DNA from: an uncultured delta proteobacterium
GTDB lineage: Bacteria > Desulfobacterota > Binatia > Binatales > Binataceae
Assembly (NCBI GenBank): GCA_963774665.1
Contig: CAVZGB010000021.1
Span: 255,467 to 319,466 of the forward strand
Length of the DNA stretch: 64,000 nt
Direction: 5' to 3'
Positions within the stretch are counted from its first letter, which is position 1; each line of letters opens with the position of its first letter. The position numbers and the translations under genes were made by a program. This document shows positions 7,925-64,000 of the stretch, one piece after another. The notes beneath the pieces were generated by a model. That model was not told the origin of the DNA and did no database searches. It was given only the letters and a program-made list of their open reading frames with translations.

Positions 7925-9175
7925 ATGCCTTCCACCCTCGCAATCCTCGGCGGCCAGCCGCTTCGCACTCGCCCCTTCCCGGCGTGGCCAGTTTTCGACG
8001 TCCGCGAACGTGCGCAGCTCGAAGACGTCCTCACCTCGCAAAGCTGGGGCGGCTACCCAAGTCCCAATCGCAAGGCCGCCGAGTTCGCCGCCGCATTCGC
8101 CGCCTACCAGGGCGCTCGCTTCGCGATTCCGACCACGTCCGGCACCAGCGCGCTCGAGGTCGCACTCAAAGCACTCGGCATCGGCGCCGGCGACGAGGTC
8201 ATCGTCCCCGCGATCACTTTCGCCGCGACCCCTTACGCTGCCGTCGCATGCATGGCGCGTCCCGTCTTCGCCGACGTCAGCGCTGCTGACGCATGCATCG
8301 ATCCCAAATCCGTCAAGCGTCTGATCACGCGCCGCACCAAGGCGATCATCCCGGTCCATTACGGCGCGTCGCTCGCCGATCTCGACGCACTCGCGGAAAT
8401 CTCGCGCGCGCATTCCATCCCGATCGTCGAAGACTGCGCCCACGTCCCCGGCGCTCAGTTCCGCGATCGCGGCGTCGGCACTCACGGCGCTCTCGGATGC
8501 TTCAGTTTTCAGTCCTCGAAGCCGATGACCGCGGGCGAAGGTGGAATGATCACGACCGACGATCCCGAGCTCGAGCAGCGATGCCAGTCGCTCATCAACT
8601 GCGGACGCCGCCGCCCGGAAGACAATTTCGAAGGTCCGCTGATGGGCGCGAACTATCGGATGACGGAATGGCAATGCGGAATTCTGCTCGCGCAACTCGC
8701 GCGCCTGCCCGAACAGATCGAGCACAAGAGCCGCGCCGCCGCCCGCCTGCGCGCAGAACTCGCCGCCATCAAGGGTCTGAGCCCGATCGCACGCGATCCA
8801 CGGGTCACGCGCGAAGTAGTCTACGCATTTGTATTTCTCGTCGACGAATCCGCGCTCGGCGTGTCGCGCAATCGATTCGTCCGCGCACTTCGCGCCGAAG
8901 GCATACCATGCGGCGTCGCCAACGACCCGGTTTATCGCTCCGCACTATTTCCGCGCGAGTCCGCCCCCTATCGCAAAGCAGTTGAACTGGCGGGCGCCAA
9001 TCCCGACACCGCCGCGATCGATTGCCCCGTCGCTGAGCGTTTGTTCGAGCACGCCATCGTCTCGATACCGCACGAATGCCTGCTCGGCGACGACCACGAC
9101 CTCGACGACATCATCGCCGCAGCCGCCAAAGTGGCTTCCGGAGCCACCGACCTCGCCTCGGCCAAATTGAAATGA
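7925..9175 (+). CDS. DegT/DnrJ/EryC1/StrS family PLP-dependent aminotransferase (second paralog)
   Basis: 416 aa with aminotransferase motifs: FAIPTTSGTSALEVAL, IIPVHYGAS, IVEDCAHV and FSFQSSKPMTAGEGGMITT. Confidence 0.85.
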   Translation: MPSTLAILGGQPLRTRPFPAWPVFDVRERAQLEDVLTSQSWGGYPSPNRKAAEFAAAFAAYQGARFAIPTTSGTSALEVALKALGIGAGDEVIVPAITFAATPYAAVACMARPVFADVSAADACIDPKSVKRLITRRTKAIIPVHYGASLADLDALAEISRAHSIPIVEDCAHVPGAQFRDRGVGTHGALGCFSFQSSKPMTAGEGGMITTDDPELEQRCQSLINCGRRRPEDNFEGPLMGANYRMTEWQCGILLAQLARLPEQIEHKSRAAARLRAELAAIKGLSPIARDPRVTREVVYAFVFLVDESALGVSRNRFVRALRAEGIPCGVANDPVYRSALFPRESAPYRKAVELAGANPDTAAIDCPVAERLFEHAIVSIPHECLLGDDHDLDDIIAAAAKVASGATDLASAKLK

Positions 9176-10538
9176 GTCCCCTCTTCGCCGGAGCCGCACG
9201 CGTGAAACTCGACCCGCCGGCCGGCCTGGCGATGCTCGGTTACGGCAATCGCGTCGGCCGCAACGCCGGCATCCATGACGACCTCGCCGCGCAGGCGCTC
9301 GTGCTGAGCGACGGGGTGAACAAAGTCGCGATAGCCGGCGTCGATGTGCTCGCAATCGGGATTCGCATCGCTGACGAGATTCGCGAACGCGTCGCCGCGA
9401 GCTCCGGCATCCCGGCCGATTCGATCCTGGTTTGCGCGACGCACACGCATTCTGCGCCCGCCTTCAACATCTTCGCGACTCCGCGCGTCGACGCGAAGCC
9501 TGCTGAGGGCCGCGACCTCGAATGGGAGCGCGCGCTGCCTGAGAAGATCGCCAGCGCAATCATTCAGGCGAGCGAAAAGCTGGAGCCAGCGACGCTCCGC
9601 GCGGCTGCCTCCCAATTCACGCTCGGAATCAATCGGCGCCTGATGCGTCCGCATCGTCAAATTCAGCTTGCCGCAAATCGCGCCGGCCCAGCCGACGCCG
9701 AAGTCAGCACGCTCGGTGCATATCGCGCCGAACGGATCTCCGATCGCATTCCTGATGAACTATCCATGCCACGGCGTCGTGCTGTGCGAGGACAACCTGC
9801 TCTACTCGCGCGACTGGCCCGGCTTCGCGATGGACGAAATCGAAACCGCGGCCGCCTCCGCCGGAGGCCCTGCGCCCAATTTCGATTTTCATCCAGGGCG
9901 CGACCGGCAATATCGATCCGCGCAGCCGCGGCAACTTCGAAGTCGCCGAGCAGCACGGACGCGCGATGGGCCGCGGCGCGTTCGAAGCGCTCCAGCAGGC
10001 TCCCTCGATTGCCGACGCACGAATTGCCGCGCGCAGAATCGCGCTGAATCTCAAGCTCAAAGATCTCAGCGCCGAACTCGCCATATCGCGCGCTTGCGCC
10101 GACCAGACCCAGGCCTCGCTCGACAACCATCGCGGCGGCGACGGCTATCAGTTGAAACGTCTGCGCGACCACCATGCGCAGTCCCGCGCGGCGCTGGCCG
10201 CTCTGGAAGCCCTCGAGGAGCAAAACCGCCGCGACCGACGCGTCGACATCGAGCGCGGCGAGCTTGCCACCGCGATGACGGTCGTGACTGTCGGCAATCT
10301 CGCGATCGTCGGCATCCCCGGCGAGCTCTTCGTCGAGCTCGGACTTGCGATTAAGGCGAACCCGAACTTCGCGCGAATTTTTGTCGCCGGCTACTGCAAC
10401 GATCTCATCGGGTATATTCCCACCCGCGCCGCGTACCCCGAAGGCGGCTACGAAGTCGATACGGCGAGAATTGCCGCCGGCAGCGGCGAGACGATCGTCG
10501 ACACCGCCCTCTCAGCGCTCGCTGCGATGCGCGCGTAA
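9172..10538 (+). pseudogene. Neutral/alkaline ceramidase-like hydrolase, split over three reading frames as assembled
   Basis: Frame 1 carries MSPLFAGAARVKLDPPAGLAMLGYGNRVGRNAGIHDDL…HTHSAP. Frame 2 carries GSPIAFLMNYPCHGVVL…DW. Frame 3 carries FIQGATGNIDPR…GYCNDLIGYIPT. The single-nucleotide shifts are near 9735 and 9890. Confidence 0.5.
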
Positions 10539-10541
10539 CTC

Positions 10542-10897
10542 GTGCGCGAGATTCAACATCGCGAACTGCTCCAGATGCTCTTCGTCCGACGCGCAGGTCG
10601 TCGACGCTCTCCCGACGCACGAGTACGCCACCGCTCACATCCGCGGCGCAATTCACATCCCGGTCGGACGCGTCCTGCGCGACGCACCAGCGTTGCTCGA
10701 CCGCACGCGCCCGGTCGTCGTCTATTGCCGCGATTCGTTGTGAGACCTCAGCGCGCGAGCTGCGGCGCAGCTCGAGTTGCTCGGCTTCACCGACGTCCGC
10801 CACTACTTCCGCGGCAAGGTCGACTGGATCGTTCGCGGATCTGCCGACCGATCCGCCGGCGCCGCTCTCAGAGCGGATGCGCGCGCTTCGCTACTTC
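10542..10897 (+). pseudogene. Single-domain rhodanese (sulfurtransferase), disrupted as assembled
   Basis: The N-terminus MREIQHRELLQMLF is in one frame. SSDAQVVDALPTHEYATAHIRGAIHIP…RPVVVYCRDSL is in another, with a shift near 10585. An in-frame TGA at 10741-10743 follows the active-site CRDS. The C-terminal …AAAQLELLGFTDVRHYFRGKVDWI continues after it. Confidence 0.5.
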
Positions 10898-11257
10898 ATG
10901 AATAATCTCGCGCCCGGCCTGCGCGCGTTCTGGATTCACTACTCAGACCGGGTGCGGGTCGCCGAGTTCATGCGCGACGACCTGGTCCGCCTCGGCCCCG
11001 AAGACCACGTCCCGCCCTCTCCTCCCGATTCGCCAACGCCGCGCGCCGTCGTGCTCGATCGCAACGAAGTCTTGCTCGGCACAATCGAACGAGCCGAACC
11101 GTCACCACGCGCACTCGATACGATGAATCCCAACCCGCAAACAATCCGCCCCGACATGACCCCGCGCCTCGCTAAGAAGCTGTTGGCTTCAAATCCATAC
11201 CTGATAGTGACGACCGCGAAGGGCAAATATCTTGGACGCTACGTCCCTGAAGACTGA
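10877..11257 (+). CDS. CBS-domain protein
   Basis: C-terminal LDTMNPNPQTIRPDMTPRLAKKLLASNPYLIVTTAKGKYLGRYVPED is CBS-like. The start is uncertain; an alternative ATG lies at about 10970. Confidence 0.4.
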   Translation: MRALRYFMNNLAPGLRAFWIHYSDRVRVAEFMRDDLVRLGPEDHVPPSPPDSPTPRAVVLDRNEVLLGTIERAEPSPRALDTMNPNPQTIRPDMTPRLAKKLLASNPYLIVTTAKGKYLGRYVPED

Positions 11258-11260
11258 GCT

Positions 11261-11689
11261 CTATCGCTCGATCACGCCATCGCTCGAGATATCCAGATGG
11301 TAGGCGACTTCGCGCGCGAGCTGCTCTGGCCGTGCGCGATAGTACTCGACCTGCGGCACACCTGGGATTGCCGCGATGACGTCGTCTACTGCGACTGCCT
11401 TGAAACCGTGATGCTCGAAGAACTCGTCAGCGTCACTGCCGAACAAATAAAGATGGCGTGCGCCGCGCGTGTGCGCAGCCTTGCGCGCCGCCGCGATGAG
11501 CGCGGCTCCGATTCCTCGCCCCCGACTCGATTCATTCACGTACAACGAGCGAATCAGCGCCGCATCGATCATCGACTCGACGCCAATTACTCCGACCGCT
11601 TCATCGCCGATGTACGCCACGATGTAACACGCCGCCGGCCACTCGATTCCGTCGGTCATCATGCCGGCCCGCGCGAGCATTTCGCGCAC
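11261..11689 (-). CDS. GNAT family N-acetyltransferase
   Basis: 142 aa with acetyl-CoA binding motif …RGRGIGAALIAAA…. Confidence 0.8.
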   Translation of the reverse strand: MREMLARAGMMTDGIEWPAACYIVAYIGDEAVGVIGVESMIDAALIRSLYVNESSRGRGIGAALIAAARKAAHTRGARHLYLFGSDADEFFEHHGFKAVAVDDVIAAIPGVPQVEYYRARPEQLAREVAYHLDISSDGVIER

Positions 11690-11768
11690 GAGCGTCGAGG
11701 TTGCGCGTCTGCTCGACTACCAGTTCGCCTGCGCGATGCTTGCGTATCGCCATGTCGCCGTTCGTGAT

Positions 11769-11999
11769 CTACTTTTTCGGCGGCGGAAACAGCTGCACTC
11801 CCGCCTCGTCTACCACCGTGATTGCCTTCACCGGACACGAACGCGCAGCCGAAACAATTATCGAGTCGTCCGCGCCCGACGGGTTGACGACTTCGGACTT
11901 GCCCTCGTCGTCGAGTTGAAACACGGCCGGCGCCGTTTCCACGCAGTCGCCGCTGCCGATGCAGCGGGTTTTGTTTACCGAGATCGAAAGCTTCGCCAT
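11769..11999 (-). CDS. Small single-cluster ferredoxin (about 8 kDa)
   Basis: 76 aa carrying CIGSGDC…CP cluster ligands. Confidence 0.75.
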   Translation of the reverse strand: MAKLSISVNKTRCIGSGDCVETAPAVFQLDDEGKSEVVNPSGADDSIIVSAARSCPVKAITVVDEAGVQLFPPPKK

Positions 12000-12089
12000 C
12001 GCTACCTCCGGGGTTCTGCTTGAACAATAGAATCCACGCCGAGCGCGCGCAATTGAATCCGCCCGCAGCGCGGCTAATACTCATTCGCG

Positions 12090-12482: not shown

Positions 12483-12494
12483 GATCTTATTTAT

Positions 12495-12544
12495 CGCGAT
12501 TGTTCCCCTTCCCTCGAGGGAAGAGGTTAGGGGTTAGGTTGCCG
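12495..12544 (+). repeat. Family 2 repeat, copy ii (CCCCTTCCC TCGA GGGAAGAGG hairpin followed by TTAGGGGTTAGGTT)
   Basis: Immediately 3' of acpS, between convergent genes. Related to 6345-6431, 43830-43870 and 60695-60738. Confidence 0.75.
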
Positions 12545-12676
12545 CGGATCGAGAATAGGCCGAAAGGACGCCGCAACGCAAAACCGGAACCGGCGGCGCT
12601 TACGCGCCGCTGTCCGGAGGCCAGAAGCCAGTTCCTGCCGCTCGCGTTGCTCGCTTCGGTCAGGATGACAGGGAGG

Positions 12677-17271: not shown

Positions 17272-17580
17272 TCAGTTCGTCCGATTCCAGAGCCGCCTGC
17301 GTCACAACCGAGTCGGTCGGTCAAATGAATTGACGATACGAACCACACGGTAATTCGATCAACAACAAGGCAACCGTCTAATTAAACACGCCACGCTGAA
17401 CTGTCAATACGATGATCTAAGGCGGTAGTGGTTCAGTTCAAAAGTCCGACTGACTCTTCGACGGTCCAAACCAGGTCCGAAACGTTGGCTTCCATCGCAA
17501 GCGTAAACTGATTCTCCATGCGCGAGCGGAGCCGTTGGCCGATCGCGGATGGTGTGTTAACTTTGTGATGGATAGAGATC

Positions 17581-17760
17581 ATGAAGCATCAGGCTAACAC
17601 GAAACGCTCTGAGACCAAGCGCCCTAAGACCAGCCTTCGAGACTTGGAACGGGTCGGTGAAGTCATTTCTGAAAGCCGCAGTTTTTTCGGTAATCTTCCA
17701 GAAATCAAACTAGCGAAGAAAATCCGATTGGATCGAATCGTGAAAGTCGCCAAGCGATAG
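17581..17760 (+). CDS. Small ORF (59 aa, basic), possible antitoxin-like partner of the downstream PIN gene
   Basis: ATG 17581 to TAG 17760, below the ORF-track length cutoff. Lies in the low-GC islet in the same frame and direction as the PIN N-terminus. Confidence 0.25.
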   Translation: MKHQANTKRSETKRPKTSLRDLERVGEVISESRSFFGNLPEIKLAKKIRLDRIVKVAKR

Positions 17761-17772
17761 AGCGCCTTTCAG

Positions 17773-18287
17773 TTGCCCGCGAATCGGCATCTCTTCAGCG
17801 ACAACCCGCTCCCGACCGAAATCGTTGTCGATTCCAGCTTTGTTTTCCATGCGCTGATAGAAGACGAGAGAAGCGGATATCACGTCCCCGCCGCGACTTT
17901 GCGGAAAGATTGCGCGGTGCGAACGCCACCCTGATCTATTCGGCTTTGATTTTCCTCGAAGCGCCTCAATGCTGGAAACGCTTGTACAATACGGGCGCGC
18001 TGCTCCCGTCAAAGCGGGGTGCGGATCTCGCCAACGACAGAGCGAGCGCTTTCACTGAAGCAAATACTGCTCTTCAAACCTTTCTTTCCGCGTTCAACAG
18101 AAAGGAAGTGCGCGTTACGAAACAGCTCATGAAAAGCGCGACTGCTCAGGTCGCTGAGTTCAATCTCGGTTCCCACGATGCAATTGCAGTTGCAATTTCT
18201 CGTTCCGGGGTTCCAAATGTTGCCGCTCTTGATCGGGGATTCAAGAGGGTTGACGGAATCGAGCTATGGGACGGAATGCTCACGTAG
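17773..18287 (+). pseudogene. PIN-domain (VapC-like) toxin homolog, frameshifted as assembled
   Basis: N-terminal EIVVDSSFVFHALIEDE is in one frame, with a TTG start at about 17773. …LIYSALIFLE…LGSHDAIAVAISRSGVPNVAALDRGFKRVDGIELW is in the 17910..18287 frame. The shift is near 17905. Confidence 0.4.
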
Positions 18288-18340
18288 GCGATTTGCTTTT
18301 GGGACCCTGTTGCTTTGCGGACTGTATCGGATAGTTTCGA

Positions 18341-30285: not shown

Positions 30286-31598
30286 TCCGCCCCTCGCGGC
30301 TTAGAAAGTACGGGTAAACTTCGCCGATAAGATACACCGATCCCGTAACAAGCGCCACGTCGTCTGCCGCCAGTTCAGAACACACACGCTCGATCGCGCG
30401 AAGCGGATCGCGCTCGACGCGTGCCGGACAATGCGCCGCGAAATGCGCCAGCAGCTCTTCAGGTTCGAGCGGGCTCTTGGGTTTGGCGCGTGTCAAAGTG
30501 ACGTCGCGCACGCGAGGACCGATCATCGCCGCCATCCGCGTCCATTCCTTGGCGGATTGGCAGCCAAATATCAGCCGCGGCTTCACCTCGGGCCCAAGTT
30601 CGACGCTCATCGTTTCGAGCAATGCGGCAATACTCATCTCGTTATGCGCGCAATCGAGGATAACGAGCGGCCGCTTCGATACGACATCGAAGCGCCCCGG
30701 CCAGTATATTTCGCCGCAGGCCCGTCCGTATTGCGTCTTCATCCATACGCCAGCCCTGCGCGCGCAAAGCTTCGAGGGTAGCAACCGCAATCGCGGCGTT
30801 CTCATGCTGAAACGGACCCGCGAGCCCAAGCTCGAGATCGCGTAGCTCCAGTCCAAGGCCGTGATAGTCCAATCGATGCGCCGGCGCGTGCGACTTGTAC
30901 GAAAAATCACGATCGATCAAGCGCACGGCGCTTCGTCGCTGCGCCGCAATCGACGTCAACGCGAGCCGCGATTCGTCGTCACGCGCACCAATCACTACCG
31001 GGACGTCGTGCTTGATAATCCCGCCCTTCTCGCCCGCAATCGCCGCGATCGTGTAGCCGAGATATTCCATGTGATCGAAGCCGATCGGCGTGATAACGCT
31101 CAAAATCGGCGTCACGACATTGGTAGAATCCAGCCTGCCCCCCAGCCCCGTCTCGACGATCGCGATATCGACGTTCTCCTCAGCGAAGTACAGGAACATC
31201 ATCGCAACCGTGAACTCAAAAAACGTGAGCGCGAGGCCCGCGCGATCGTAAATCGCGCGCAGCCGCTCGATATAGTCGAGCATCAGCCCCGCCGGAATCT
31301 CCGCTCCCGAAATCCGTGTCCGCTCCGCGAGGTTCACAAGATGCGGCTTGGTGTAGAGTCCCGTCCGATAACCCGCGCTCCGCAGACAACTATCAAGCAT
31401 CGCGGCGACGGATCCCTTACCCTTGGTCCCCGCGATATGCACCGCCTGAATCCGCCGATGAGGATTGCCAATGACCTCAAGCGCAGCCTCCATCCGCTCG
31501 AGCTTGTAAATCTCCCCGCGCGCCTCGAGCGAATAGAGCCAATCGATCGTCTTGCTGAGCTGATCCATATCCAGCCGAAGTTTATCGGCTATCAGCAT
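30257..31598 (-). CDS. folC: Dihydrofolate synthase/folylpolyglutamate synthase, frameshifted near 30713 as assembled
   Basis: The N-terminal 318-aa ORF carries GTKGKGS and …DHMEYLG…. The C-terminal ORF carries YWPGRFDVVSKRPLVILDCAHNE. The junction …GLRRNI/YWPGRF implies one extra base in a TTT run (plus-strand 30709-30711). Confidence 0.8.
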
Positions 31599-31936: not shown

Positions 31937-32817
31937 GACACTCCCCTGCGCTTGCCCTTCGGTGCGCCCTGCCCCGCGCCGCGATTCCCCCGCGGCTTCG
32001 TCAGCATCGCTAGGATTCGTGACAACGTGAAACGCATCTGATGGCGCGGGACGATCGCGTCGAGCATCCCGTGCGCAAGGAGGAACTCGGCGCGCTGGAA
32101 ATCGTCGGGCAGTTCCTGATTGCTGGTCTGCGCCGTCACCCGCCGGCCCGCGAAACCGATCAGCGCGCCCGGCTCGGAGATATTCAAATCGCCGAGCATC
32201 GCGAACGACGCCGCCACGCCGCCTGTCGTGGGATCGCACAGCACGGAAATGTACGGCAGGCGCGCGTCGCGATATCGCGCGATCGCCGAAGATACTTTCG
32301 CCATCTGCATCAATGACAGCGGACCTTCCTGCATTCGCGCGCCCCCCGACGCGACAAATATGATCACCGGCAGCTTGCGCTCGCATGCGATATCGAAAAG
32401 CCGCGCGAGCTTCTCGCCGACTACCACGCCCATGCTGCCGCCCATGAATTCAAAATCCATCACGCCGAGAGCCACCGGCCGATTCTCGATCTTGCCGATC
32501 CCCACCACCACCGCGTCGTTGCGGCCGCTGTTCGCGCGCGCCTGTTCCATCCGCTTCGGATACGGCCGCGAATCGACGAAGCCGAGCGGGTCGCCAATCG
32601 CCATCTCGACCATCAGCTCGCGCCAGGTCCCGCGATCGACGCTGATCGAAAGCCGCTGCGGCACCGTCACGCGGAAATGATATCCGCACTTCGGGCACAC
32701 GTTCAGATTGCGCTCCACTTCCTTGCGGAACGCCATCTCCTTGCACGACGGGCACTTCGACCAGATGTCGTCCGAGGGGGCCTGCGTCGTAACCGGCGTC
32801 TGTTCCCGTTCAGCCAT
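31933..32817 (-). CDS. accD: Acetyl-CoA carboxylase carboxyltransferase beta subunit
   Basis: Zn-ribbon CPSCKEM…CPKCGYH plus the carboxyltransferase domain. The start overlaps the trpA stop. Confidence 0.9.
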   Translation of the reverse strand: MAEREQTPVTTQAPSDDIWSKCPSCKEMAFRKEVERNLNVCPKCGYHFRVTVPQRLSISVDRGTWRELMVEMAIGDPLGFVDSRPYPKRMEQARANSGRNDAVVVGIGKIENRPVALGVMDFEFMGGSMGVVVGEKLARLFDIACERKLPVIIFVASGGARMQEGPLSLMQMAKVSSAIARYRDARLPYISVLCDPTTGGVAASFAMLGDLNISEPGALIGFAGRRVTAQTSNQELPDDFQRAEFLLAHGMLDAIVPRHQMRFTLSRILAMLTKPRGNRGAGQGAPKGKRRGVS

Positions 32818-33662
32818 CAGAATTCTCCGCCACGGGCGTTTGCTCGGTGCGTCGCGCCGACTTCATCGCATCCTTCATCGCGCCGACCAGACCGCCCACC
32901 GCCATCCGGCACGTCGCCGGACTTCGCATGCTCTTCGATCAACAATGAAATCGCGCTGCCTACCACCACCGCATCCGCCATCCTCGCGACTTCGGCAGCC
33001 TGCTCAGGCGTCGAGATACCGAAGCCAACGCCAATCGGCAAATCGGTCACGCTGCGAATCTCGCGCATGTGCTCGGCAATGCCGGTGTCGAGATGCGTCC
33101 GCGCGCCGGTCACACCAGTCACCGACACATAATAGAGAAACCCGCTGGCGGAGCGCGCGATCGCGCGACTTCGGTCGATAGGCGTCGTGGGCGCGAGCAG
33201 GTAAATCAGGTCCAGCCCGTTGGCGCGCGCCGGCTTCTTGAGCTCGCCGGACTCTTCAGGCGGCAAATCGATCACCAGCAACGCGTCGATACCCGCACGC
33301 GCAGCGTCTGCGCAGAGCCGCTCGCATCCGTAGTGAAAAATCGGGTTGTAGTAGCCGAACAGGATCACCGGAATCTGCGTCTGCGCGCGAAGCTCGCTCA
33401 CCATCGAGAGTATCGCTGCCAACGACGCGCCCGCGCCGAGCCCGCGCGCCAGCGAGCGTTGATTGGCGGGTCCGTCGGCCATCGGATCGGAAAACGGCAC
33501 ACCCAGCTCGATCAAGTCGGCGCCGCGCGCCTCGAGCTCGAGCACCAGCTTGCGCGTCGTATCCATATCGGGATCGCCGGCCACGATGAACGGGATCAGC
33601 GCCGCCTCGCCGCGCGCGCGCAGCTCGCGAAACTTCCGTTTGATTCTATGCGCCGCTGCCAT
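32810..33662 (-). CDS. trpA: Tryptophan synthase alpha chain, with an apparent frameshift about 25 codons before the C-terminus
   Basis: …ALIPFIVAGDPD…GVPFSDPMADGP…. The tail reads naturally (…GLVGAMKDAMKSARRTEQTPVAENSDG*) only in the -1 frame, which then overlaps the accD start. Confidence 0.8.
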
Positions 33663-36223: not shown

Positions 36224-37242
36224 TGTAATCCGTTGCTGGCGCGCCGCATCTTGTCGAGGACTTCCAGCGCGCGGCTCTTGGCGATGATTTCGCGCGCCAT
36301 GTCGACGCCTTCTTTCAGCGACGCGGCCTTGCCGCCCACGTAAATCGCAGCGCCGCCGTTCAGCGCGAGCACATCTTGCGCCGGCCCCGCGCCGCCATCA
36401 AGCGCGCCGCGCAGAACTCGCACGGCATCGTCAAGATTCGTGATCATAAGCGCGCGAAGGTCGCTGCGAGGTATGCCGAAGGTTATCGGCGTAACTTGAT
36501 ACTCCGCCAGTTCGCCGTCGCGAAGTTCCACTATCCTGGTCGGGCCGCTGATCGCGATTTCGTCGATTCCATCGCCGCCGTGCACGACCATCGCGCGCCG
36601 CGTTCCGAGCGCCTTGAGCGCATTCGCCATCGGCCGGATCAAATTCTCTTCGGCGACGCCCAGCAGATGGAAGCGAGGACGCGCCGGGTTGCCGAGCGAC
36701 CCCATCAGATTGAAGATGGTGCGAATTCGGAGCTCGCGCCTGAGCGGCGCAATCTTTTTGAACGCTGGATGATACACCTGCGCGAAGATGTGACAGCATC
36801 CCGCGGCGTCGAGGCATCGCTTCAGCCCGTCGGGATCGCAATCGATCTTAACGCCCAGCGCTTCGAGCACGTCTGCCGTGCCTACTGTGCCACTGATCGC
36901 GCGATTGCCGTGTTTGGCGACCGGCACACCAGCGGCGGCCGCGATCAACGCGGCGCCGGTCGAGATGTTGAAGGTGCTGGCGCCGTCGCCACCGGTGCCG
37001 CAGGTATCGAGCACCTTACCATCGCGAAGATTCAGCGGACGCGCGCGTGCGAGCATCGCGCGCACCGCGCCTGCAAGCTCGTCGGCCTCAGCGCCCTTGA
37101 TTTTCAGCGCCACCAAAAACGCGCCGACGACAGCGTCGGACGCGCCGCCGTCCATGATCTCGCCAATCGCCAGTTCAGCCTCGGCGTCGGTGAGCGAGCG
37201 CCCGTCGATGAGCGCCTGCAGGGCTTCGTGGAGTCCGCTCAT
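36220..37242 (-). CDS. trpD: Anthranilate phosphoribosyltransferase
   Basis: …DTCGTGGDG…VAKHGNRA…. Confidence 0.9.
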   Translation of the reverse strand: MSGLHEALQALIDGRSLTDAEAELAIGEIMDGGASDAVVGAFLVALKIKGAEADELAGAVRAMLARARPLNLRDGKVLDTCGTGGDGASTFNISTGAALIAAAAGVPVAKHGNRAISGTVGTADVLEALGVKIDCDPDGLKRCLDAAGCCHIFAQVYHPAFKKIAPLRRELRIRTIFNLMGSLGNPARPRFHLLGVAEENLIRPMANALKALGTRRAMVVHGGDGIDEIAISGPTRIVELRDGELAEYQVTPITFGIPRSDLRALMITNLDDAVRVLRGALDGGAGPAQDVLALNGGAAIYVGGKAASLKEGVDMAREIIAKSRALEVLDKMRRASNGLQ

Positions 37243-37857
37243 TGCGCGGTTCCGTTTTTGTCGAGGCTGTCGAGAAAGTTTTGCAGCAGATGCTTTCCCT
37301 CGAACGTCAGAATCGATTCGGGATGAAATTGCACCCCTTCGACTGCGTAATGCTTGTGGCGAAGCCCCATGATTTCGTCTTCCGCCGTGCGGGCACTGAC
37401 TTCCAGTGCCGGCGGAATCGACGCCGCGTCAACCAGCAGCGAATGATAGCGCATCGCGTCGAACGGGCTCGGGATGCCCTGCGAAAATCGTCTTGCCGTC
37501 GTGGATTATCGGCGACGTCTTGCCGTGCATCAGGCGATCGGCGCGCACGACTTTGCCGCCGAACGCCTCGCCGATACATTGCAGGCCGAGGCACACGCCG
37601 AGAATCGGCAGTTCACCCGCCATCTCGCGCAGCAGAGTCAGCGAGATTCCGGCCTCGGTGGGAGTGCATGGCCCGGGCGAGATTACGACCGCCGCGGGAT
37701 GAAGCGCGCGAACGCCGGCGACGTCGATCGCGTCGTTGCGCCTGACGATGACGTCGGCGCCGAGTTCGCCGAGGTACTGCACGATGTTGTAGGTAAACGA
37801 GTCGTAGTTGTCGATCATCAGCACTCGTTTTTTAGTGTTTGACGCCATCGTGATCAC
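37239..37857 (-). CDS. trpG: Anthranilate synthase component II (glutamine amidotransferase), frameshifted near 37465 as assembled
   Basis: The N-terminal ORF carries catalytic …ILGVCLGLQ… and ends …GKTIFAG. The second ORF continues with …RYHSLLVD…GVQFHPES…. One extra base in a CCC run (plus-strand 37477-37479) explains the break. Confidence 0.8.
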
Positions 37858-42862: not shown

Positions 42863-43642
42863 ATGGAACTCGGACTTGGCGGCAAAGCGGCAATCGTCAC
42901 TGGCGGGAGCAAGGGAATCGGGCGCGCGACCGCAATCGGGCTCGCAGCGGAAGGCGCGTCGGTGCTGGTATGCGCGCGCGGTCGCGAGGCGCTGGATGAA
43001 ACCGTAAAGCTGGCGCGCGGACGCGACGGCGCTCGCGTTGAAGCGATCCAGGCGGACCTCAACCAACCTGAAGACGTGAAGCGAGTCGTCGCGCGATGCG
43101 TCGAGGCGTTCGGCAAAATCGACATCCTGGTGAACAACGCGGGCAGCGCGCGGCCCGGCGATTTTCAGAAGCTCACCGATGACGAATGGCTCGAGGATTG
43201 GAATCTCAAGTTCTTCGGCTACGTGCGAATGGCGCGCGAAGTCTTGCCGCAGATGCAAAATCAGGGGCATGGCGTCGTTGTCAACGTGATCGGAACCGGC
43301 GGGCTGATCCCGACTGGCGGCTACATGATCGGCGGATCGGCAAATGCTGCGCTCAACCATTTTACCAAGGCGCTCGCGAACGAGGGATCGAAGCATGGCG
43401 TGCGCGTCGTGGGCGTGAATCCAGGGCCTATTTTCACCGACAGGCTGCGTCTATTCACCGAGCGGCGCGCAGCGGGCGGCAACATCGACGAGGTGCTGAA
43501 GCGGATGACGCCGCTCGGGCGTCCCGGCAAAGCGGAGGAAGTCGCGGACCTGGTGATGTTCCTCGCGTCGGAGCGGGCGGCTTTCATTCATGGCGCGAAC
43601 ATCACGATCGACGGCGGCGCGAATCCGGGGCTGATCGGGTAA
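42863..43642 (+). CDS. SDR-family oxidoreductase (3-oxoacyl-ACP reductase-like)
   Basis: TGGSKGIGRA cofactor motif, NNAG, and a Y-x3-K catalytic core. Confidence 0.85.
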   Translation: MELGLGGKAAIVTGGSKGIGRATAIGLAAEGASVLVCARGREALDETVKLARGRDGARVEAIQADLNQPEDVKRVVARCVEAFGKIDILVNNAGSARPGDFQKLTDDEWLEDWNLKFFGYVRMAREVLPQMQNQGHGVVVNVIGTGGLIPTGGYMIGGSANAALNHFTKALANEGSKHGVRVVGVNPGPIFTDRLRLFTERRAAGGNIDEVLKRMTPLGRPGKAEEVADLVMFLASERAAFIHGANITIDGGANPGLIG

Positions 43643-46747: not shown

Positions 46748-48973
46748 TCAGTCGACATGTAACCGCGCTGCCAGGCGCGAGAAGCGCCGACGCTCGTCCT
46801 GATTCCGCACCGCCTGCTGCAATGCGCTCTTCGTCCCGACCAGCACGCATACCCGTTCGGCGCGCGTGATTGCGGTGTAGAGCAGGTTGCGACGGAGCAT
46901 CAGGTAGTGACTCGAATGTATCGGCATCACGATCGCCGGATACTGGCTGCCCTGGCTCTTGTGCACTGAGATCGCGTAGGCAAGCGCGAGTTCGTCGAGC
47001 TCGGACAGGTCGTACTCGGCGTGAGTCTCCTCGAACATGACGCTCAGGCGCGCCTTATCAGTATCGATTCCAAGAATCCTTCCGATCGAGCCGTTGTAGA
47101 CGCCTTTGTCGTAGTTGTTGCGCAACTGGATTACGCGATCGCCCTCACGAAAAGTTCGATCGCCGGAGCGGATTTCGCGTCCCACGGGATTCAGCAATGC
47201 TTGCAGCTCGCGATTCAGAAGGTGCGTGCCGAGCGGGCCGCGATTCATCGGGGTCAGCACCTGGATTTCGCGAGGGTCGCTGATTCCGAAGCGTCCAATC
47301 AGCCGCTGTTGCACGAGCTGCTTGATCGTCGCGAGCACATCCTCGGCGGCGTTGCGCTCGAAGAAAAAGAAGTCGCCTTCGGCGTCGTTGGAGAGTTGCG
47401 GGAACTCTCCCCGATTCAGTCGATGCGCGTTGGCGACGATCAGGCTGCGGCGCGCCTGCCGATAGACTTCCTTCAACTGCACCACGGGCACGAAGTCGGA
47501 AGCGATCACGTCCTTGAGCACGCTGCCCGGACCGACGGAAGGAAGCTGATCGCGATCGCCGACGAGCAACAGCGAGCAGTTCGGCATCAGGGCGGAGAGC
47601 AGGCTCGAGGCGAGCTCGACGTCCATCATCGAGGCCTCGTCGATGATCAGATAGTTGGTGCGCAGCGGAAAATTCTTGCCGCGGATGAATCCGCCGCTCT
47701 GCGGATCGTATTCGAGCAGACGATGGATAGTTTTCGCGTCGCGGCCCGAGGCCTCCTGGAGCCGGCGAGCGGCGCGTCCGGTCGGTGCGGCCAGTGTCGG
47801 CTTCAATCCGACGTCGGCGAGTGCGACCAGCAGCGAGCGCAGCAGAGTCGTCTTGCCGGTGCCGGGACCGCCGGTGATGACGGTGACGCGGCTCGCCAGC
47901 GCGCATCGAAGCGCGCTCTTTTGTTCGGCTGAGAGCTCGAGCTCCGACGATTTGATCGCAGCCGCGACCGCGCGATCGATGAGGTCCTTGTTCATCGCGC
48001 GGCCTGCGTTCAATTCCGCGATTCGCGTGGCGACGTTCACTTCGGCCTCGTGCAGGCGCGCGAGGTAAATCGCGATGTGATCGTCTGCCTCTTCGGCAAT
48101 CACCTCGCCGCTGGCGGCGAGTTCGTTCACTGCGTCGTGCGCGAGGTCGGGTTCCATCTCGAGCGCGGTGCGGAACTGGCCTTCGAGATATTCGAACGGC
48201 GAATAGACGTGGCCCTCGTCGGACATGCGTTCGAGGATGTACAGCACGGCGGCGCGCGCGCGTTGGATCGAGTTGCGCGGGATGCCGAGTTTCTCCGCGA
48301 TGGCGTCGGCGGTGCGAAATCCGATGCCGTGAATCGTGCGCGCGAGCACGTAAGGATCGCGCTTGACTACGTCGAGCGCGTCCTTGCCGTAGAACTTGTG
48401 GATTCGTCGAGCGTGCGAGGCGGCCAGCCCGTGTCCGCGCAAAAAGACGGTGAGCTCGCGCAAGCCTGACGCGTCGCGCCATGCTGTGGCGATCAGTCGC
48501 GCAACCGCGCCGCCGATGCCCGGAACTTCGCGCATGCGTTCGGGCGCGTTGTCGAGCACTTCGCCGAGCGTGTCGCCGAAGTGTTCCGCGATTCGCCGCG
48601 CGAGCCTGGGGCCGATGCCTTTTATTTCGGAAGCGAGGTAGCGTTCTATCGCGACGGCTCCTGCAGGGCGCAGCGTTTCGAAATCGACGACGTGGAACTG
48701 CTCGCCGAAGCGCGGATGCTTTTCAAAGCCGCCCAGCGCCCGGATGGTCGAGCCGACTTCGAGACCCGCGAGATTGCCGACGACGGTGACGCGGCGAAAA
48801 TCGCCATGCTCCTGCGGGATGACGACGACGGCGACCGAGTAGCCGTTCTTGTCGTTGACGAACAGGACCTGATCGAGGATGCCCTCGACAGTCTCGGTCG
48901 CTTGAACCGCTTGTGCCACGGCAACAGGATTACGCGCGACGGAGGCGGCGTCCAGTTGATGCGTCGCGCGCAT
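46748..48973 (-). CDS. recD2: RecD2-type ATP-dependent DNA helicase (RecD/TraA family)
   Basis: Helicase motifs …VITGGPGTGKTT…, LLLVGDRDQLPSVGPG and …VHKSQGSQY…. The start is taken at MRATHQ (M47 of the track ORF); it overlaps the stop of the upstream kinase-family gene as TGATG. Confidence 0.85.
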   Translation of the reverse strand: MRATHQLDAASVARNPVAVAQAVQATETVEGILDQVLFVNDKNGYSVAVVVIPQEHGDFRRVTVVGNLAGLEVGSTIRALGGFEKHPRFGEQFHVVDFETLRPAGAVAIERYLASEIKGIGPRLARRIAEHFGDTLGEVLDNAPERMREVPGIGGAVARLIATAWRDASGLRELTVFLRGHGLAASHARRIHKFYGKDALDVVKRDPYVLARTIHGIGFRTADAIAEKLGIPRNSIQRARAAVLYILERMSDEGHVYSPFEYLEGQFRTALEMEPDLAHDAVNELAASGEVIAEEADDHIAIYLARLHEAEVNVATRIAELNAGRAMNKDLIDRAVAAAIKSSELELSAEQKSALRCALASRVTVITGGPGTGKTTLLRSLLVALADVGLKPTLAAPTGRAARRLQEASGRDAKTIHRLLEYDPQSGGFIRGKNFPLRTNYLIIDEASMMDVELASSLLSALMPNCSLLLVGDRDQLPSVGPGSVLKDVIASDFVPVVQLKEVYRQARRSLIVANAHRLNRGEFPQLSNDAEGDFFFFERNAAEDVLATIKQLVQQRLIGRFGISDPREIQVLTPMNRGPLGTHLLNRELQALLNPVGREIRSGDRTFREGDRVIQLRNNYDKGVYNGSIGRILGIDTDKARLSVMFEETHAEYDLSELDELALAYAISVHKSQGSQYPAIVMPIHSSHYLMLRRNLLYTAITRAERVCVLVGTKSALQQAVRNQDERRRFSRLAARLHVD

Positions 48974-49874
48974 CAACAGGTGCGCTTGCGATCGGCGAGG
49001 ACTTCGTCGATCTGGCGCCGGGCCATCGCGACGATCACGGGGTTGGTGTCCAGGTAGTAAGGGAGAGCGATCAGGCCGGTCGAGAGCGCCCAGCCGCGGC
49101 TTCTCGCCCAACTGGCGTCATCGATAGACAGCGCCACGCGGAATGCGTCACGGCTCTCGCCGGAGAAGAGCGTCCACGCAGCTACGAAGTCGCACGCGGG
49201 ATCGCCTACGGCCAAGCCGCCGAAGTCGATGACGGCGCTTAGATGGCCGTGGTCGACCAGCAGGTTGCCAGCATGGAGGTCTCCATGGATCCAGACGGGC
49301 GGACCGTCCCACGCAGGTGCTTGGGAAGCCTCGTCCCAGGCCGCGGTGACAGCGTCAGTATCCAGCTCGTTGTGCAACTTCGCGATCGCGGCCCTCGTGT
49401 CTGCGTCTCGTATTGCCAGCGGGACGCCGCGGCCAAAGTTGTGTGCCCCGGGACGCGGGCCGCCGGTGATATCGATCCGCTGCATCGCGGCTACGAATTG
49501 CGCCAGGGCGATCGCAGCCTGGCGAAGATCTGCGAAGCGCTCGACGATCGCGTTCTCGCCCGGGGAGCCATCGACAAACCGACCAATGCCAGGGGTAACC
49601 GTCGGCGGGCATCCCTTTCGCGAGCGGGACCGGGATGGCGAGTGGCAGATGCGGGGCCAGTCGAGGCAGCCACTGAAGCTCCTTGTCGACCTGAGTGGTC
49701 GCCCACTCGATGCGCGGCAGTCGGACGCACATGTCGTCGCCGAGGCGATAGATTGCGTTGTCGGTCCCGCCGGAGCGAACGCGCTCGAGGGGAAGATTTG
49801 CCCATTGCGGATAACTGCTCGGCGAGCAACCGGCGCACGAGGGATGCGTCGATGTCGATCTCGGTAGCATGCAT
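48973..49874 (-). pseudogene. Aminoglycoside/choline-kinase-type phosphotransferase (APH family), spread over three frames as assembled
   Basis: MHATEIDIDASLVRRLLAEQ, then YPQWANLPLERVRSGGTDNAIYRL…WLPG, then …IHGDLHAGNLLVDHGHLSAVIDFG…. The shifts are near 49815 and 49555. Confidence 0.55.
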
Positions 49875-50236
49875 TTTAACAGCGCACATGAGCGGCTTTC
49901 TGGACGAGATTCAGGGGCGATCGGGGCGATTTGTGGTGGAGACGATGCCGAATTGCGATCGGTCGTTTCGAGGGAGACTTGCAATTCATACCACCTGTTG
50001 TGGTTCAGTGATGTGAGTACCACCATCGGTAGCTTTGTTCCGTCAAATTTGGTGTTTTCGAAACGAATGTTGCCCGAGGCGTCGAGTGGAGGGTGCTGAC
50101 GGTTGATCACACCGTATGTCGTAGCATGATGTGCGCGCAGCAGGCAGGCTGAACAGTTCATCCATGAACGCGGAGAGAAAAAAGAGCCGGGAATCTTCGA
50201 CGCTCTGAAGACACGACGCGCGCTGCCCCAGCGGAG

Positions 50237-50278
50237 CCCTCACCTTTGCCCCGTCTCACGGGAGAGGGGAAGAAATCC
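50237..50278 (+). repeat. Family 2-related hairpin (…GCCCCGTCTC ACGG GAGAGGGGAAGAAATCC), partial
   Basis: 17 of 18 positions match the GGAGAGGGGAAGAGATCC segment at 60721-60738. Lies just 3' of the MATE gene on the minus strand. Confidence 0.55.
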
Positions 50279-50333
50279 AAACGAGGCTATGCGGGGTCAT
50301 CCTTGCAGGGAAAGGAAAGAAAGCTGAGCCGGG

Positions 50334-60706: not shown

Positions 60707-60738
60707 CCCCTCTCCCTTCTGGAGAGGGGAAGAGATCC
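60695..60738 (-). repeat. Family 2 repeat, copy iv, in reverse orientation (CCTAACCCC / CCCTCTCC CTTCT GGAGAGGG)
   Basis: Overlaps the last three codons and stop of gcvPB. Lies between the convergent gcvPB and mobA. Confidence 0.7.
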
Positions 60739-60742
60739 CGTT

Positions 60743-61360: not shown

Positions 61361-61399
61361 GCGATGAGTGTAGAGTGCGCGCGATTGACGCGCCAGCGC

Positions 61400-62039
61400 T
61401 TACGCCGCGGCTCGGCTCTCTGGTGCGCGATTTGCGCGCAACTCGGTGCCGATGATTCGCAGTGCCTCGGGATGGAAGATCAGCGCCAGATGACCGACGT
61501 CGTGCAGCGTCACGATCCGTCGAAACGCGGCGCTATTCACCAGCGGTTCGATTGGCGCAGGCACGATCGGGTCGTCGTCGCCGAAAATCCCGACCTCGGT
61601 CGGACTCCACTGGCCGTAGGAATACGGTGAGCCGAGCGTGATCAGCGATCGCACCGCGCTTTTCGGCGCGCTCGTGGCGTAGCGGCGAGCAACGGTACCG
61701 CCGAGACTGTGACCGATCAGATGAACGCCGTTGTCGCCCGATTTTTCCTCTGCGATACGCCCGAGTTGGGCGGCGGAATCAGTCAAGCGTCTGCCATCGC
61801 GGGTACTCGAAATAAGAAACGTTGTCGAATCCCGCCAGCCGCAGATACGCCGCGAGCGCCAGCAGATTCGAACGGCTACCGCCGAATCCGTGAAGTAAAA
61901 TAACGGGTTCGCTCGACGGCTCGCAGAAGTACGGCTCGCCTCGTTTGACCAGCCAGTCCATCGGATACGAGCCGAGCAATGCGCCCGCCGCGGCGATTTC
62001 GGTGATGACAGTTTTCGATTTCACTTTTTCGCTGTTCAA
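61400..62039 (-). CDS. Alpha/beta-hydrolase (lipase/esterase, GHSLGG nucleophile elbow), frameshifted near 61785 as assembled
   Basis: The upstream ORF carries …PVILLHGFGGSRSN…YPRWQTLD*. The downstream ORF continues with DSAAQLGRIAEEKSGDNGVHLIGHSLGG…. Confidence 0.6.
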
Positions 62040-62244
62040 TGCCTCCGCGATGAAAAGCTAACCACCTCTCATCTGTACGGCAACCGGGCGCGGGCACGGC
62101 GGCCCGCCCCACCAGGAGTATGCGCGCGCGCATTAGTTTCGCTGCTACGGCGCCGCAGCGTTACGAATCGGGTGTTTTGAAAAACCAAGGTACATTCCGG
62201 TATATACGCTAGACGCGCGGCAATCTCGGAGGGGGGAAATCGCG

Positions 62245-64000
62245 ATGGCTCGAAGATTCGCGGCCGGTCGTTTGATAGTCAATTGGGCGAGTTTGCTGTT
62301 CGCATCGATGCTGTTGTTCGGGCTTGGCGCGGCTAGCACATTTGCACAAAAGCCCGCAGACGTCGTCGGCAATTGGAGCGGTGCTTTGCAGGTGGACGGT
62401 GGCTTGCTGCGCCTGGCTCTGCATGTGAACACAGATACTGCAGGCAAGTTGAGCGTCACACTCGACAGCCTCGATCAGAACGCGATGGGCCTGCAGGGCA
62501 GCAATGTCGTGCTCAAAGGCGACAGTTTCAGTTTCGAAATTCCTTCAGTCTCCGGCACATACACGGGAACACTTGACGGCGACGGCAAAAATATCAGAGG
62601 CACGTGGAGCCAAGGCGTTCCGCTGCCGCTGGTTTTCACTCGTCAGAATGGTGGACCCATGCCAACCGCGATGCCGACTCCGACGCCGGCGCCTGCGATG
62701 CCTCCCGTTGCATTGGATAATCTCAAACCGGTCCTGGATCGCGAATTGGCGCCTGTCCTCGACCATGGATTGCTCAGCAAGGCGAGCGGCGGCGGCGGAT
62801 TGGTGATCGGTGTAATGGATCACGGCCAGCGGCGCATCTTCGCTTACGGCACCGCGAAGCCGGATTCGATTTTCGAGATCGGATCGATCACCAAGACGTT
62901 TACCGGGCTGGTTCTGGCGCAGATGGTGGTGCAGAAGAAGGTCACGCTCGATACTCCCATTCGTACGCTGCTGCCGGCTGGCGTTGTGGCGAAGCCCAAG
63001 GGCACGGAAATCACGCTGGTCGATCTCGCGACGCAGCATTCCGGGCTGCCGCGGATGCCGGATAACTTCAAGCCGCAAAATCCATTGAATCCATATGCCG
63101 ACTACCACGCGGCGCAACTGCAAGAGTTCATTGCCAAGCACGGCGCCGCCAAGCCGGCCGACGCTGCATTCCTCTACAGCAATCTCGGTTTCGGATTGCT
63201 TGGTTACGGGCTTTCATTGCGATGCCGGTGTTCCCTACGGACAATTGGTCTCGACCGAAATCACCGGCCCACTGCACATGAGCGACACCGGCGTCACGCT
63301 CTCGCCGGAGCAGCGATCGCGGCTGATCCAAGGTTATGATTACAACTTCGACCCGACCCCTCCGTGGGATCTGGATGCGTTCGCCGGCGCCGGTGCGATC
63401 AAATCGACGGCGGCGGACATCCTCACTTATCTCGACGCGAACCTGCATCCGGACAAGTACGCGACCGGCGCAGCCGCCGATTCGCCGGCGGCAACGCTGC
63501 CTGCCGCAGTCGCGCTGGACCATCAAGTGCGCTCGAACGTCACTGTTAGCGGCGACGACCAGGATAGCGTTGGCCTGGTTCTTCAATCCTAAGACGGGAT
63601 CCTACTTCCATTCAGGCGGCACCGGCGGATACAGGTCATTGGCTACGATTCAATCCTGCTCGAGGATCGGGCGATCGTGGTGCTCTACAATCGTGACGAC
63701 ACAGATCCCGGAGCGCCACGGTTGGTCGAACGGGTCGTGGAAAACATTGACGATTTGATGACCGGGAAGCCGTCGATCCCGTTGGATTTCATATCGGAGG
63801 AGGAACGTCTCGCGCTGGTTCCGCTGACCTTCACAGACAGATCGATCCAGGGCCCGTATCATTGCACGCTTACGCCATTTTCGCTGCCGCCCACAATCAA
63901 AGATCCCTTCAAGCCGACGGGGACAGGCGATATTCATATCGTTGCGGACGGCAACGGCAAATATTCGGAGGGAACCTGGATCGATTATATCCGGGCTCCC
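62245..64000 (+). pseudogene. Beta-lactamase/transpeptidase-family serine hydrolase with an N-terminal extra domain. Runs off the window; at least three frameshifts as assembled.
   Basis: Signal peptide, then S-x-x-K (GSITKTF) and Y-x-N (YSNLG). The text continues in other frames: …AGVPYGQLVSTEITGPLHMSD…, then …WFFNPKTGSYFHSGGTGGYRS…, then …VVLYNRDDTDP…. Shifts are near 63225, 63345-63590 and 63640. Confidence 0.55.

Follow-up and report, generated by a model that had tools for sequence, protein, structure and literature searches.

One-base insertions in nine genes of a Candidatus Binatus contig: probable consensus errors from co-occurring strains

Interrupted genes in bacterial sequences have several known sources. 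The pseudogene-rich genomes of Mycobacterium leprae and Sodalis glossinidius carry mixed lesions under relaxed selection that are shared by descent, and bacterial pseudogenes have a deletional bias. Programmed frameshift sites, such as that of prfB, are conserved among orthologs. Homopolymer errors are mostly under-calls of run length, and frameshift-correction tools such as proovframe exist. In metagenome assembly, a collapsed-strain or mosaic consensus is reportedly what the strain-phasing tools Strainberry and Strainy address. Frameshift errors in consensus sequences made from Nanopore reads alone are documented (Sereika et al. 2022, PMC9262707; PMC12313526), and the Microflora Danica long-read catalogue includes quality-control remarks on such indels (PMC12313526).

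The DNA considered here (“the window”) is a stretch of 64,000 nucleotides from a soil metagenome-assembled genome (MAG) of Candidatus Binatus, and its 438 kb contig belongs to the long-contig type of assembly. With nine of about 56 genes interrupted, the window resembles the genomes of M. leprae and S. glossinidius, but it lacks their mixed lesions and relaxed selection, and 13 of its 15 lesions are unshared or non-identical in other assemblies. It is also like long-read-only Nanopore consensus sequences, in that single-base indels truncate conserved genes, essential and accessory alike, are specific to each assembly and are essentially missing from the probable short-read assemblies of this population. 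Unlike those errors, however, the indels of the window lie outside homopolymers, are all insertions and fall preferentially on SNP sites, where they bring in the other allele, which favors collapsed strain diversity over homopolymer miscalls. As in a collapsed-strain consensus, several haplotypes 1–8% apart co-occur, and the window alternates between their alleles.

Judged from these sequence comparisons, the 15 frameshifts are very probably errors in the assembled consensus and not mutations of the organism, with the collapse of co-occurring strains as the best-fitting mechanism. Six independent lines support the original prediction that indel errors of the assembly, and not genuine pseudogenes, lie behind the breaks: all lesions are +1, the frames are cleanly restored, selection is not relaxed, the frequency of private coding frameshifts follows assembly type, essential genes are broken in sister assemblies, and the inserted bases tend to match SNP alleles.

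Frameshifts and intact genes

Three-frame translation, together with tblastn of 54 intact proteins from close relatives against the window, located 15 one-base insertions in nine genes between 9.1 and 64 kb, in keeping with an earlier count of at least 12 frameshifts in nine or more genes. Frame hops were required only in these nine genes, listed here with the ferredoxin gene, which carries a sixteenth insertion:

9172–10538, plus strand: ceramidase-like gene (PF04734), two insertions, an extra G at 9730 and an extra G at 9872, placed by alignment with relatives
~10545–11257, plus strand: rhodanese and CBS-like protein, two insertions, at ~10580 and 10839, and an in-frame TGA at 10741–10743
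11261–11753, minus strand: GNAT acetyltransferase, one insertion, an extra T at 11695; missing from the original prediction
11772–11999, minus strand: ferredoxin gene, the sixteenth insertion, a C at 11769 within the stop codon
30257–31598, minus strand: folC (Mur ligase M and C domains), one insertion, an extra C at 30714
32810–33662, minus strand: trpA, one insertion, at 32902
37239–37848, minus strand: trpG (class I glutamine amidotransferase), one insertion, at 37481
48973–49874, minus strand: APH-family kinase, two insertions, at 49561 and 49812
61400–62024, minus strand: alpha/beta hydrolase (the “lipase-like” gene), one insertion, at 61781
62245 to beyond 64000 (off the end of the window), plus strand: beta-lactamase family gene, four insertions, at 63222, 63557, 63646 and 63662

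All 15 lesions are +1 insertions, and no nonsense mutations, deletions or IS elements were found in the nine broken genes. When the 15 bases are deleted, each gene has a length divisible by three and no internal stop, and the corrected proteins give full-length Pfam matches that span each break. The ceramidase-like gene, for example, comes out of tblastn as three HSPs, one in each of frames 1, 2 and 3, which bears out the two shifts claimed for it, and its corrected, stop-free protein of 454 aa matches its Pfam family. GNAT is read in two frames, and its corrected protein likewise has a Pfam match, as does that of folC (446 aa). In trpA, the last ~30 codons are out of frame after the insertion. 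The APH-family kinase has the expected two shifts, both called against a single comparator, L012, which is itself error-prone; its corrected protein of 299 aa covers positions 5–239 of the 239 in the APH profile. Three or more shifts had been anticipated in the beta-lactamase family gene, and four were located. This gene is intact in four JGI versions of 669–672 aa, among them one of 669 aa on contig L025, and the corrected window protein matches Pfam.

The insertion in the ferredoxin gene changes the stop from TAA to TAG and leaves the protein unaffected: residues 1–76 align at 100% identity in one frame, and the extra base is absent in all eight relatives compared. A broken PIN/VapC-like gene that had also been proposed was not recovered, as no such domain was found; the further broken genes of that stretch are GNAT and the rhodanese gene in its C-terminal part.

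The remaining ~45 genes are unbroken. In agreement with what had been noted for polA, lptD, recD2, argS and the rest of the trp operon, each of these, as well as accD, aligns over its full length in a single frame. The 15 frameshifts cluster in accessory genes, with 11 of them in a total of ~4.5 kb. Relaxed selection would predict such clustering, and so would higher local strain diversity. Rfam and tRNA scans of the whole window found nothing, including no tRNA genes in the 64 kb, and no repeats were found in a variable spacer at 17.3–18.3 kb.

Sequence context of the inserted bases

All indels were polarised against relatives from other metagenomes that are 96–99% identical to the window, and the comparison took in 25 homologous loci at 93–99% identity. 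The close relatives of the window are Candidatus Binatus sp., and a protein scan of GTDB representatives gave distant relatives only, at most 76% identical, with no genome of the same species among them.

The inserted base stands alone at 12 of the 15 sites, belongs to a run of two at two sites and to a run of three at one. The run-extending sites are 30714 and 32902, where one base becomes two, and 49561, where two become three. Of the 96 homopolymer runs of at least 5 nt in the window, none carries an insertion, and no common motif or slippery run was found across the 15 sites. An explanation by GATC methylation motifs was dropped, as two insertions create GATC but without a consistent pattern. 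An extra base in a homopolymer, the cause originally given for the breaks in trpG, trpA and folC, fits at most three of the 15 sites. None of the three lies in the homopolymer named for it. In trpG, a single G has been added at 37481, next to and not within the CCC at 37477–37479 to which it had been assigned, and the inserted C of folC sits at 30714 rather than in the TTT at 30709–30711. In trpA, for which a GG run near 32895 had been named, the insertion is at 32902, where the plus strand goes from C to CC (GG on the strand of the gene).

The inserted bases instead tend to match neighboring alleles. At six of the 15 sites, close relatives have the inserted base as their alternative allele at an adjacent position (null 4.8%, P = 4e-5). 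A wider Binatus panel raises the match to nine of 15 (P = 4e-4 against a null of 18%), with trpA, folC and trpG among the nine; at six sites the comparators show no alternative allele. The same signature is present in eight of 23 private insertions in the other long-contig assemblies (P = 7e-6). Both CGC and CGG alleles of the folC codon at 30714 are found among Binatus contigs, as are GAT and GAG for the trpA codon adjoining 32902. In trpG, the window sequence TTCGCAGGGC combines parts of the alleles TTCGAGGGC and TTCGCAGGC (GAGGGC and GCAGGC alleles), and this allele with its insertion has no exact match in the GTDB representative genomes. At 61781 in the hydrolase, the window mixes two haplotypes that are distinct at four bases in a row, and here as well as at ~10580, 10839, 63222 and 63662 it swaps between the alleles of different relatives within a few bases.

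In the best-fitting sequence of events, reads of two or more co-occurring Binatus strains, 1–8% divergent, would be collapsed into one consensus. Wherever the strains have a SNP or several SNPs close together, both alleles would be written in succession during consensus building, so that a base kept from one haplotype while the other is followed would add one base and shift the frame. Strain mixing in the reads would be the step that lies behind the observed insertions, their private or non-identical state between assemblies, their polymorphic location and their presence in otherwise perfectly conserved genes. That strain collapse may lead to +1 insertions is a link we infer from the present data set.

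Ordinary assembly errors, either homopolymer-length miscounts or random residual errors at low coverage, with no mixing of strains, are an unlikely source. Homopolymer indels are the main documented error of Nanopore consensus sequences (PMC9262707). The three run-extending sites, the six sites without an observed alternative allele and a private deletion in an A-run of argS at 41517 in one sister assembly would all fit such errors. However, this explanation sits poorly with the 12 lone inserted bases, with the untouched longer runs and with a match to neighboring SNP alleles that is far above chance; homopolymer errors, moreover, chiefly under-call length, whereas every lesion here is an insertion.

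Relatives, assembly type and selection

Compared with the 25 loci, the extra base occurs in the window alone in GNAT, folC, trpA, trpG, the hydrolase and at two of the beta-lactamase sites; the strictly private coding insertions with at least two comparators number seven. The GNAT base at 11695 is absent in eight of eight relatives, and the trpG base at 37481 in five of five, four of which are JGI contigs. The remaining insertions either differ from one assembly to another or have just one comparator, save two that recur identically in a second long-contig assembly, 9730 in ERZ25039482 and 63646 in ERZ25039537, and these could mean inheritance. A comparison with orthologous loci in close relatives had been proposed as a check on the original prediction, and apart from these two sites, its outcome agrees with it.

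Other shifts seemingly shared with ERZ25039482 differ in sequence. Site 9872 reads TG in the window and GT in ERZ25039482; at 10839, the window has allele A plus an added A, and ERZ25039482 has allele C plus an added C. The apparent sharing at 9872 and 10839 appears to reflect independent errors at one multi-SNP site. Inheritance of the shifts at 9872, ~10580 and 10839 was ruled out, since the sequences differ.

The frequency of breaks depends on the type of assembly. The window and five ENA “contig_N” long-contig assemblies together contain 43 private coding indels that are not a multiple of three in 173 kb, and 17 JGI short contigs from the same population contain one, a compensated pair, in 110 kb; this corresponds to 0.25 versus 0.009 per kb of coding sequence (Fisher P = 1.9e-8). 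The long-contig data probably come from Nanopore sequencing, with Flye as the assembler and no short-read polishing. Within the window, private indels are ~9-fold scarcer in coding than in intergenic DNA, which counts against a uniform error process.

The “contig_N” naming of the ENA assemblies is shared with the Microflora Danica long-read project, which used Nanopore R10.4.1 reads, Flye and one round of Medaka (PMC12313526); the shared naming is a lead only.

The same genes are broken at different positions in each assembly. The sister assembly ERZ25039605 has breaks in argS and gcvT/PA/PB, ERZ25039482 in polA, and ERZ25039537 in folC, accD and recD2. These include genes that cannot be dispensable, each broken at a different position, which supports an artefact. 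A supposed accD frameshift in the window was rejected, as it is ERZ25039537 that has the indel, at 32026.

The broken genes are under purifying selection with no relaxation. Window-private substitutions in the nine genes comprise 36 synonymous and nine non-synonymous changes (pN/pS 0.083), compared to 172 and 51 in the intact genes (pN/pS 0.098), and neutrality would give ~34 non-synonymous changes in the broken genes rather than nine. The private changes in the ceramidase-like gene are four synonymous and none non-synonymous. Real decay had been considered possible for the ceramidase-like and rhodanese genes, an idea that gained no support, as these genes show purifying selection and share the artefact signature of the others.

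Genuine recent pseudogenising mutations in this Binatus lineage, in all nine genes or at least in the accessory ceramidase, rhodanese, APH, hydrolase and beta-lactamase genes, are very unlikely. The identical insertions at 9730 and 63646 speak for them, as does the observation that the ceramidase and beta-lactamase genes are each broken in three long-contig assemblies. The population also has real frameshift polymorphism, as in adh_short, where two JGI contigs have a 2-nt indel in common. However, pN/pS is not raised in the broken genes, the exclusive +1 insertions are contrary to the deletional bias of bacterial pseudogenes, break positions differ between assemblies, the four JGI beta-lactamase versions are intact, argS, polA and accD are hit alike in the sister assemblies, and the tandem-allele pattern holds for the inserted bases. 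Were trpG, trpA and folC truly inactivated as well, the result would be a strain auxotrophic for tryptophan and folate. Even less likely is a scenario in which a free-living soil Binatus would have very recently lost trpG, trpA and folC along with accessory genes and become an auxotroph fed by its community, in an early burst of inactivation by an insertion-biased process acting at inter-strain recombination junctions.

Functional recoding, with normal expression through programmed +1 ribosomal frameshifting or transcriptional slippage, has in its favor that the genes are otherwise intact and nothing further, and is hardly credible given that orthologs 97–99% identical lack the extra base, that the 15 sites share neither a motif nor a slippery run, and that programmed frameshift sites are normally conserved among orthologs.

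If the insertions are consensus errors, this Binatus genome should be taken to have an intact trp operon, an intact folC and intact accessory genes. Taken at face value, about one-sixth of the genes in the contig would be mis-annotated as pseudogenes or fragments, and metabolic reconstruction would wrongly infer tryptophan or folate auxotrophy. Because the error type is not homopolymeric, homopolymer-aware polishing would miss such errors, and strain-aware polishing or protein-guided frameshift correction would remove them. The signature of both alleles in tandem would serve as a cheap test for such artefacts that needs no reads.

A conserved TGA codon in the rhodanese gene

The rhodanese gene had been described as broken by one shift and an in-frame TGA. 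The frameshift part of this stands, with two shifts at ~10580 and 10839 rather than one; the TGA as a lesion does not. The codon, at 10741–10743, is in frame in all six relatives whose DNA aligns across it, and a Rhodanese profile match at positions 3–99 of 102 spans it. At this column, 17 of 18 full-length homologs have Cys, and the TGA is a candidate selenocysteine codon. The Rfam SECIS models gave no match at this site. An 8-bp hairpin at 10756–10774, CGAGCUGC-GGC-GCAGCUCG, begins 12 nt after the UGA; it has no Rfam match, and its folding z of -0.73 is unexceptional. In many Binatus assemblies, gene callers cut this candidate selenoprotein into two pieces.

Single-base insertions in nine genes

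Intact proteins of relatives, 54 in all, aligned full length to the window in a single frame by tblastn, with the exception of nine genes: those for ceramidase (spread over three frames), rhodanese (with "hyp159"), GNAT, folC, trpA and trpG, an APH kinase at 49-50 kb, an alpha/beta hydrolase and a beta-lactamase-family protein. The breaks in folC, trpA and trpG were borne out by three-frame translation. The window, part of a contig from a metagenome-assembled genome of an uncultured soil lineage (Binatota; named cluster mates of its proteins are mostly Candidatus Binatus sp.), has a G+C content of 61%, and homologous DNA with 93-99% identity to it was taken from other metagenomes. It comes from five ENA long-contig assemblies with Flye-style "contig_N" names (ERZ25039537, -496, -506, -482 and -605; loci L001-L005, L012, L013, L024 and L026) and 17 JGI/IMG short contigs (L006-L011, L014-L023 and L025), all loci combined covering 4.3-64 kb of the window.

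Base-level alignments with this DNA placed the lesions at 9730, 9872, ~10580, 10839, 11695, 30714, 32902 and 37481, and at 49561, 49812, 61781, 63222, 63557, 63646 and 63662. The original count of at least 12 frameshifts in at least nine genes thus holds, with 15 shifts across 9 genes, the APH sites having a single, error-prone comparator. A 16th insertion, at 11769, lies inside the ferredoxin stop codon, which it changes from TAA to TAG without effect. A frameshift in accD was suspected early, but the window gene is intact and the indel belongs to ERZ25039537.

Each of the 15 lesions adds exactly one base. The added base differs from both neighbors in twelve cases, makes a run of two in two cases and a run of three in one, and the 96 homopolymer runs of at least 5 nt in the window are all spared. 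The homopolymer cause originally proposed is therefore wrong for trpG and folC, the inserted bases lying outside the runs named; for trpA, it survives weakly, as a change from G to GG. When the 15 bases were deleted in silico, every gene became a multiple of three in length and free of internal stops, and Pfam matches ran across the former breaks (Ceramidase_alk, Rhodanese, GNAT, Mur_ligase_M and Mur_ligase_C, Trp_syntA, GATase, APH, Abhydrolase and Beta-lactamase). No PIN/VapC domain was found among the Pfam matches of the corrected proteins; a PIN/VapC-like gene had been listed among the broken ones.

Bacterial pseudogene decay is deletion-biased, and the pure +1 insertion spectrum of the window is the opposite; nonsense codons, deletions and mobile elements were not found among the lesions of the broken genes. 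Of the window-private substitutions in these nine genes, 36 are synonymous and 9 non-synonymous (pN/pS 0.083), whereas under neutral decay about 34 of the 45 would be expected to be non-synonymous; in the intact genes, the counts are 172 and 51 (pN/pS 0.098). Neither the substitutions nor the insertions support real decay of the accessory genes, which had been considered possible.

Origin of the insertions

Coding indels private to one assembly and with a length not a multiple of three were counted by assembly type. The window and the five ENA assemblies have 43 such indels in 173 kb, whereas the 110 kb of JGI contigs have one, a compensated -2/+2 pair (Fisher P=1.9e-8). The density in the window, 15 per ~52 kb of coding DNA, is the same as in its sister assemblies (0.29 per kb). 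Private indels are ~9-fold rarer in coding than in intergenic DNA. The sister assemblies are broken at positions of their own: argS, gcvT, gcvPA and gcvPB in ERZ25039605, polA in ERZ25039482, and folC, accD and recD2 in ERZ25039537. None of these genes can be dispensable. The beta-lactamase gene is broken in three long-contig assemblies at different sites, while four JGI versions of 669-672 aa are intact.

Alignment with relatives revealed that insertions lie on polymorphic sites and bear the other allele. At 63222, T in two relatives and A in a third correspond to AT in the window, and at 63662, C or G in these relatives corresponds to CG. At ~10580, the CTC of one haplotype is fused to the T-TCG-TCC-GAC of another. 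At 10839, the window has GGT-CTG-CCG plus the A of GGA-TTA-CCT, while ERZ25039482 combines this second haplotype with a C from the first; at 9872, TG in the window stands against GT in ERZ25039482 and T in the others. The shifts seemingly shared with ERZ25039482 at 9872 and 10839 thus differ in sequence and arose independently at one multi-SNP site. The insertions at 9730 and 63646 are each identical in one other long-contig assembly.

Among close relatives, 6 of the 15 inserted bases match the alternative allele of an adjacent SNP, compared to 4.8% when insertions are placed at random within 300 nt (P=4e-5). With 80 Binatus contigs as a wider panel, trpA (GAT/GAG), folC (CGC/CGG) and trpG, where the window reads TTCGCAGGGC and the alleles are TTCGAGGGC and TTCGCAGGC, bring the matches to 9/15 against a null of 18% (P=4e-4); no alternative allele was seen at six sites in either set. 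The same signature is found in 8 of 23 private insertions in the other long-contig assemblies (P=7e-6), including those in polA, accD, gcvPA and gcvPB.

Selection, lesion spectrum, assembly type, the sister-assembly controls and SNP position all support the original reading of assembly errors rather than pseudogenes. The set of insertions as a whole is very probably artefactual, it is highly improbable that trpG, trpA and folC are truly inactivated, and as a biological feature, the frameshifts are not real. The specific mechanism is probably strain collapse, in which reads of co-occurring Binatus strains would be collapsed into one contig and a consensus or polishing step would retain one base per haplotype at SNPs or short multi-base differences, yielding a +1 shift. 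Eleven of the 15 shifts fall in the ceramidase-to-GNAT stretch, the APH gene and the hydrolase/beta-lactamase stretch, where haplotype identity is 92-96%, compared to 97-99% elsewhere; under strain collapse, the shifts would cluster there because the haplotypes diverge most. Frameshift errors in Nanopore-only consensus sequences are well documented (PMC9262707), and for a large catalogue of soil MAGs from long reads (Flye plus one round of Medaka), the authors checked for frameshift errors and discuss microdiversity (PMC12313526). The sequencing technology behind the window and the ENA assemblies is one that we infer.

The in-frame TGA of the rhodanese gene

about 10545-11257, + strand, rhodanese-CBS-like gene with an in-frame TGA at 10741-10743, in the active-site loop

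The TGA had been taken for a further lesion, which it is not: it is kept in 6/6 relatives aligned across the site, including two JGI contigs, and aligns with cysteine. The frame remains open past it, from the rhodanese domain into a C-terminal part (annotated as CBS in some sources) that ends at 11257, and the Rhodanese Pfam match spans it (profile positions 3-99 of 102). Full-length homologs (224-251 aa, annotated "rhodanese-related sulfurtransferase") have Cys in this column in 17 of 18 cases and Trp in one, within the motif VVYCRD[S/C]L[C/U]DLSARAAAQL; the window reads VVYCRDSL-TGA-DLSARAAAQL. The remaining matches listed are mostly C-terminal pieces of about 157-162 aa, the TGA evidently having been read as a stop by gene callers, and in many Binatus assemblies, the gene is called in two parts, a "rhodanese" of 55 aa and a hypothetical protein of 159 aa.

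Rhodanese-related sulfurtransferases are among the listed selenoprotein families of prokaryotes (PMC1088965), and from its sequence context, the TGA is a likely candidate for a selenocysteine codon. An 8-bp hairpin begins 12 nt past the UGA; its folding energy is unexceptional, and no Rfam match was found for it. The window copy of the gene also bears two of the artefactual insertions.

Other variation in the population

In ERZ25039537, the homolog of window 62245-63817, the beta-lactamase-family gene (L024 7481-9070), has about a dozen private 1- or 2-base insertions within 700 nt and 91-93% identity to other versions, far below the rest of its contig; in this stretch, a consensus of mixed strains has probably been garbled locally. 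The APH-family kinase gene (region 48973-50330), between a MATE transporter and recD2, is found in the window and ERZ25039605. ERZ25039537 lacks it, with the flanking genes ~150 nt apart (L013 11398-11553), and the gene is thus a presence/absence polymorphism within the population.

Between an ABC ATPase gene and polA, the window has an 870-nt non-coding spacer (17419-18288), for which searches for terminal repeats, tRNA genes and Rfam families were negative; ERZ25039496 and ERZ25039482 have ~19 nt in its place, and JGI contigs can be aligned only partly. One of the few window-private deletions, at 17296, lies 25 nt 5' of the start codon of the ABC ATPase and leaves one base fewer than in 10/10 relatives. 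At 62024-62042, the window has 8 extra bases relative to three relatives, directly 5' of the alpha/beta hydrolase start codon, and the ribosome-binding region of this gene may therefore differ.

The short-chain dehydrogenase gene (adh_short, 42863-43642, + strand) has indels that look like genuine frameshift polymorphisms. A 2-nt indel near its 5' end (~42995), common to two independent JGI contigs (L015 1402-2174 and L018 3-472), splits it into 48-aa and 221-aa calls. At the 3' end, a 1-nt indel at 43582 is common to three other JGI contigs: L017 and L019, in which the whole gene is called, at 256 aa, and L015, which carries the 5' indel as well.
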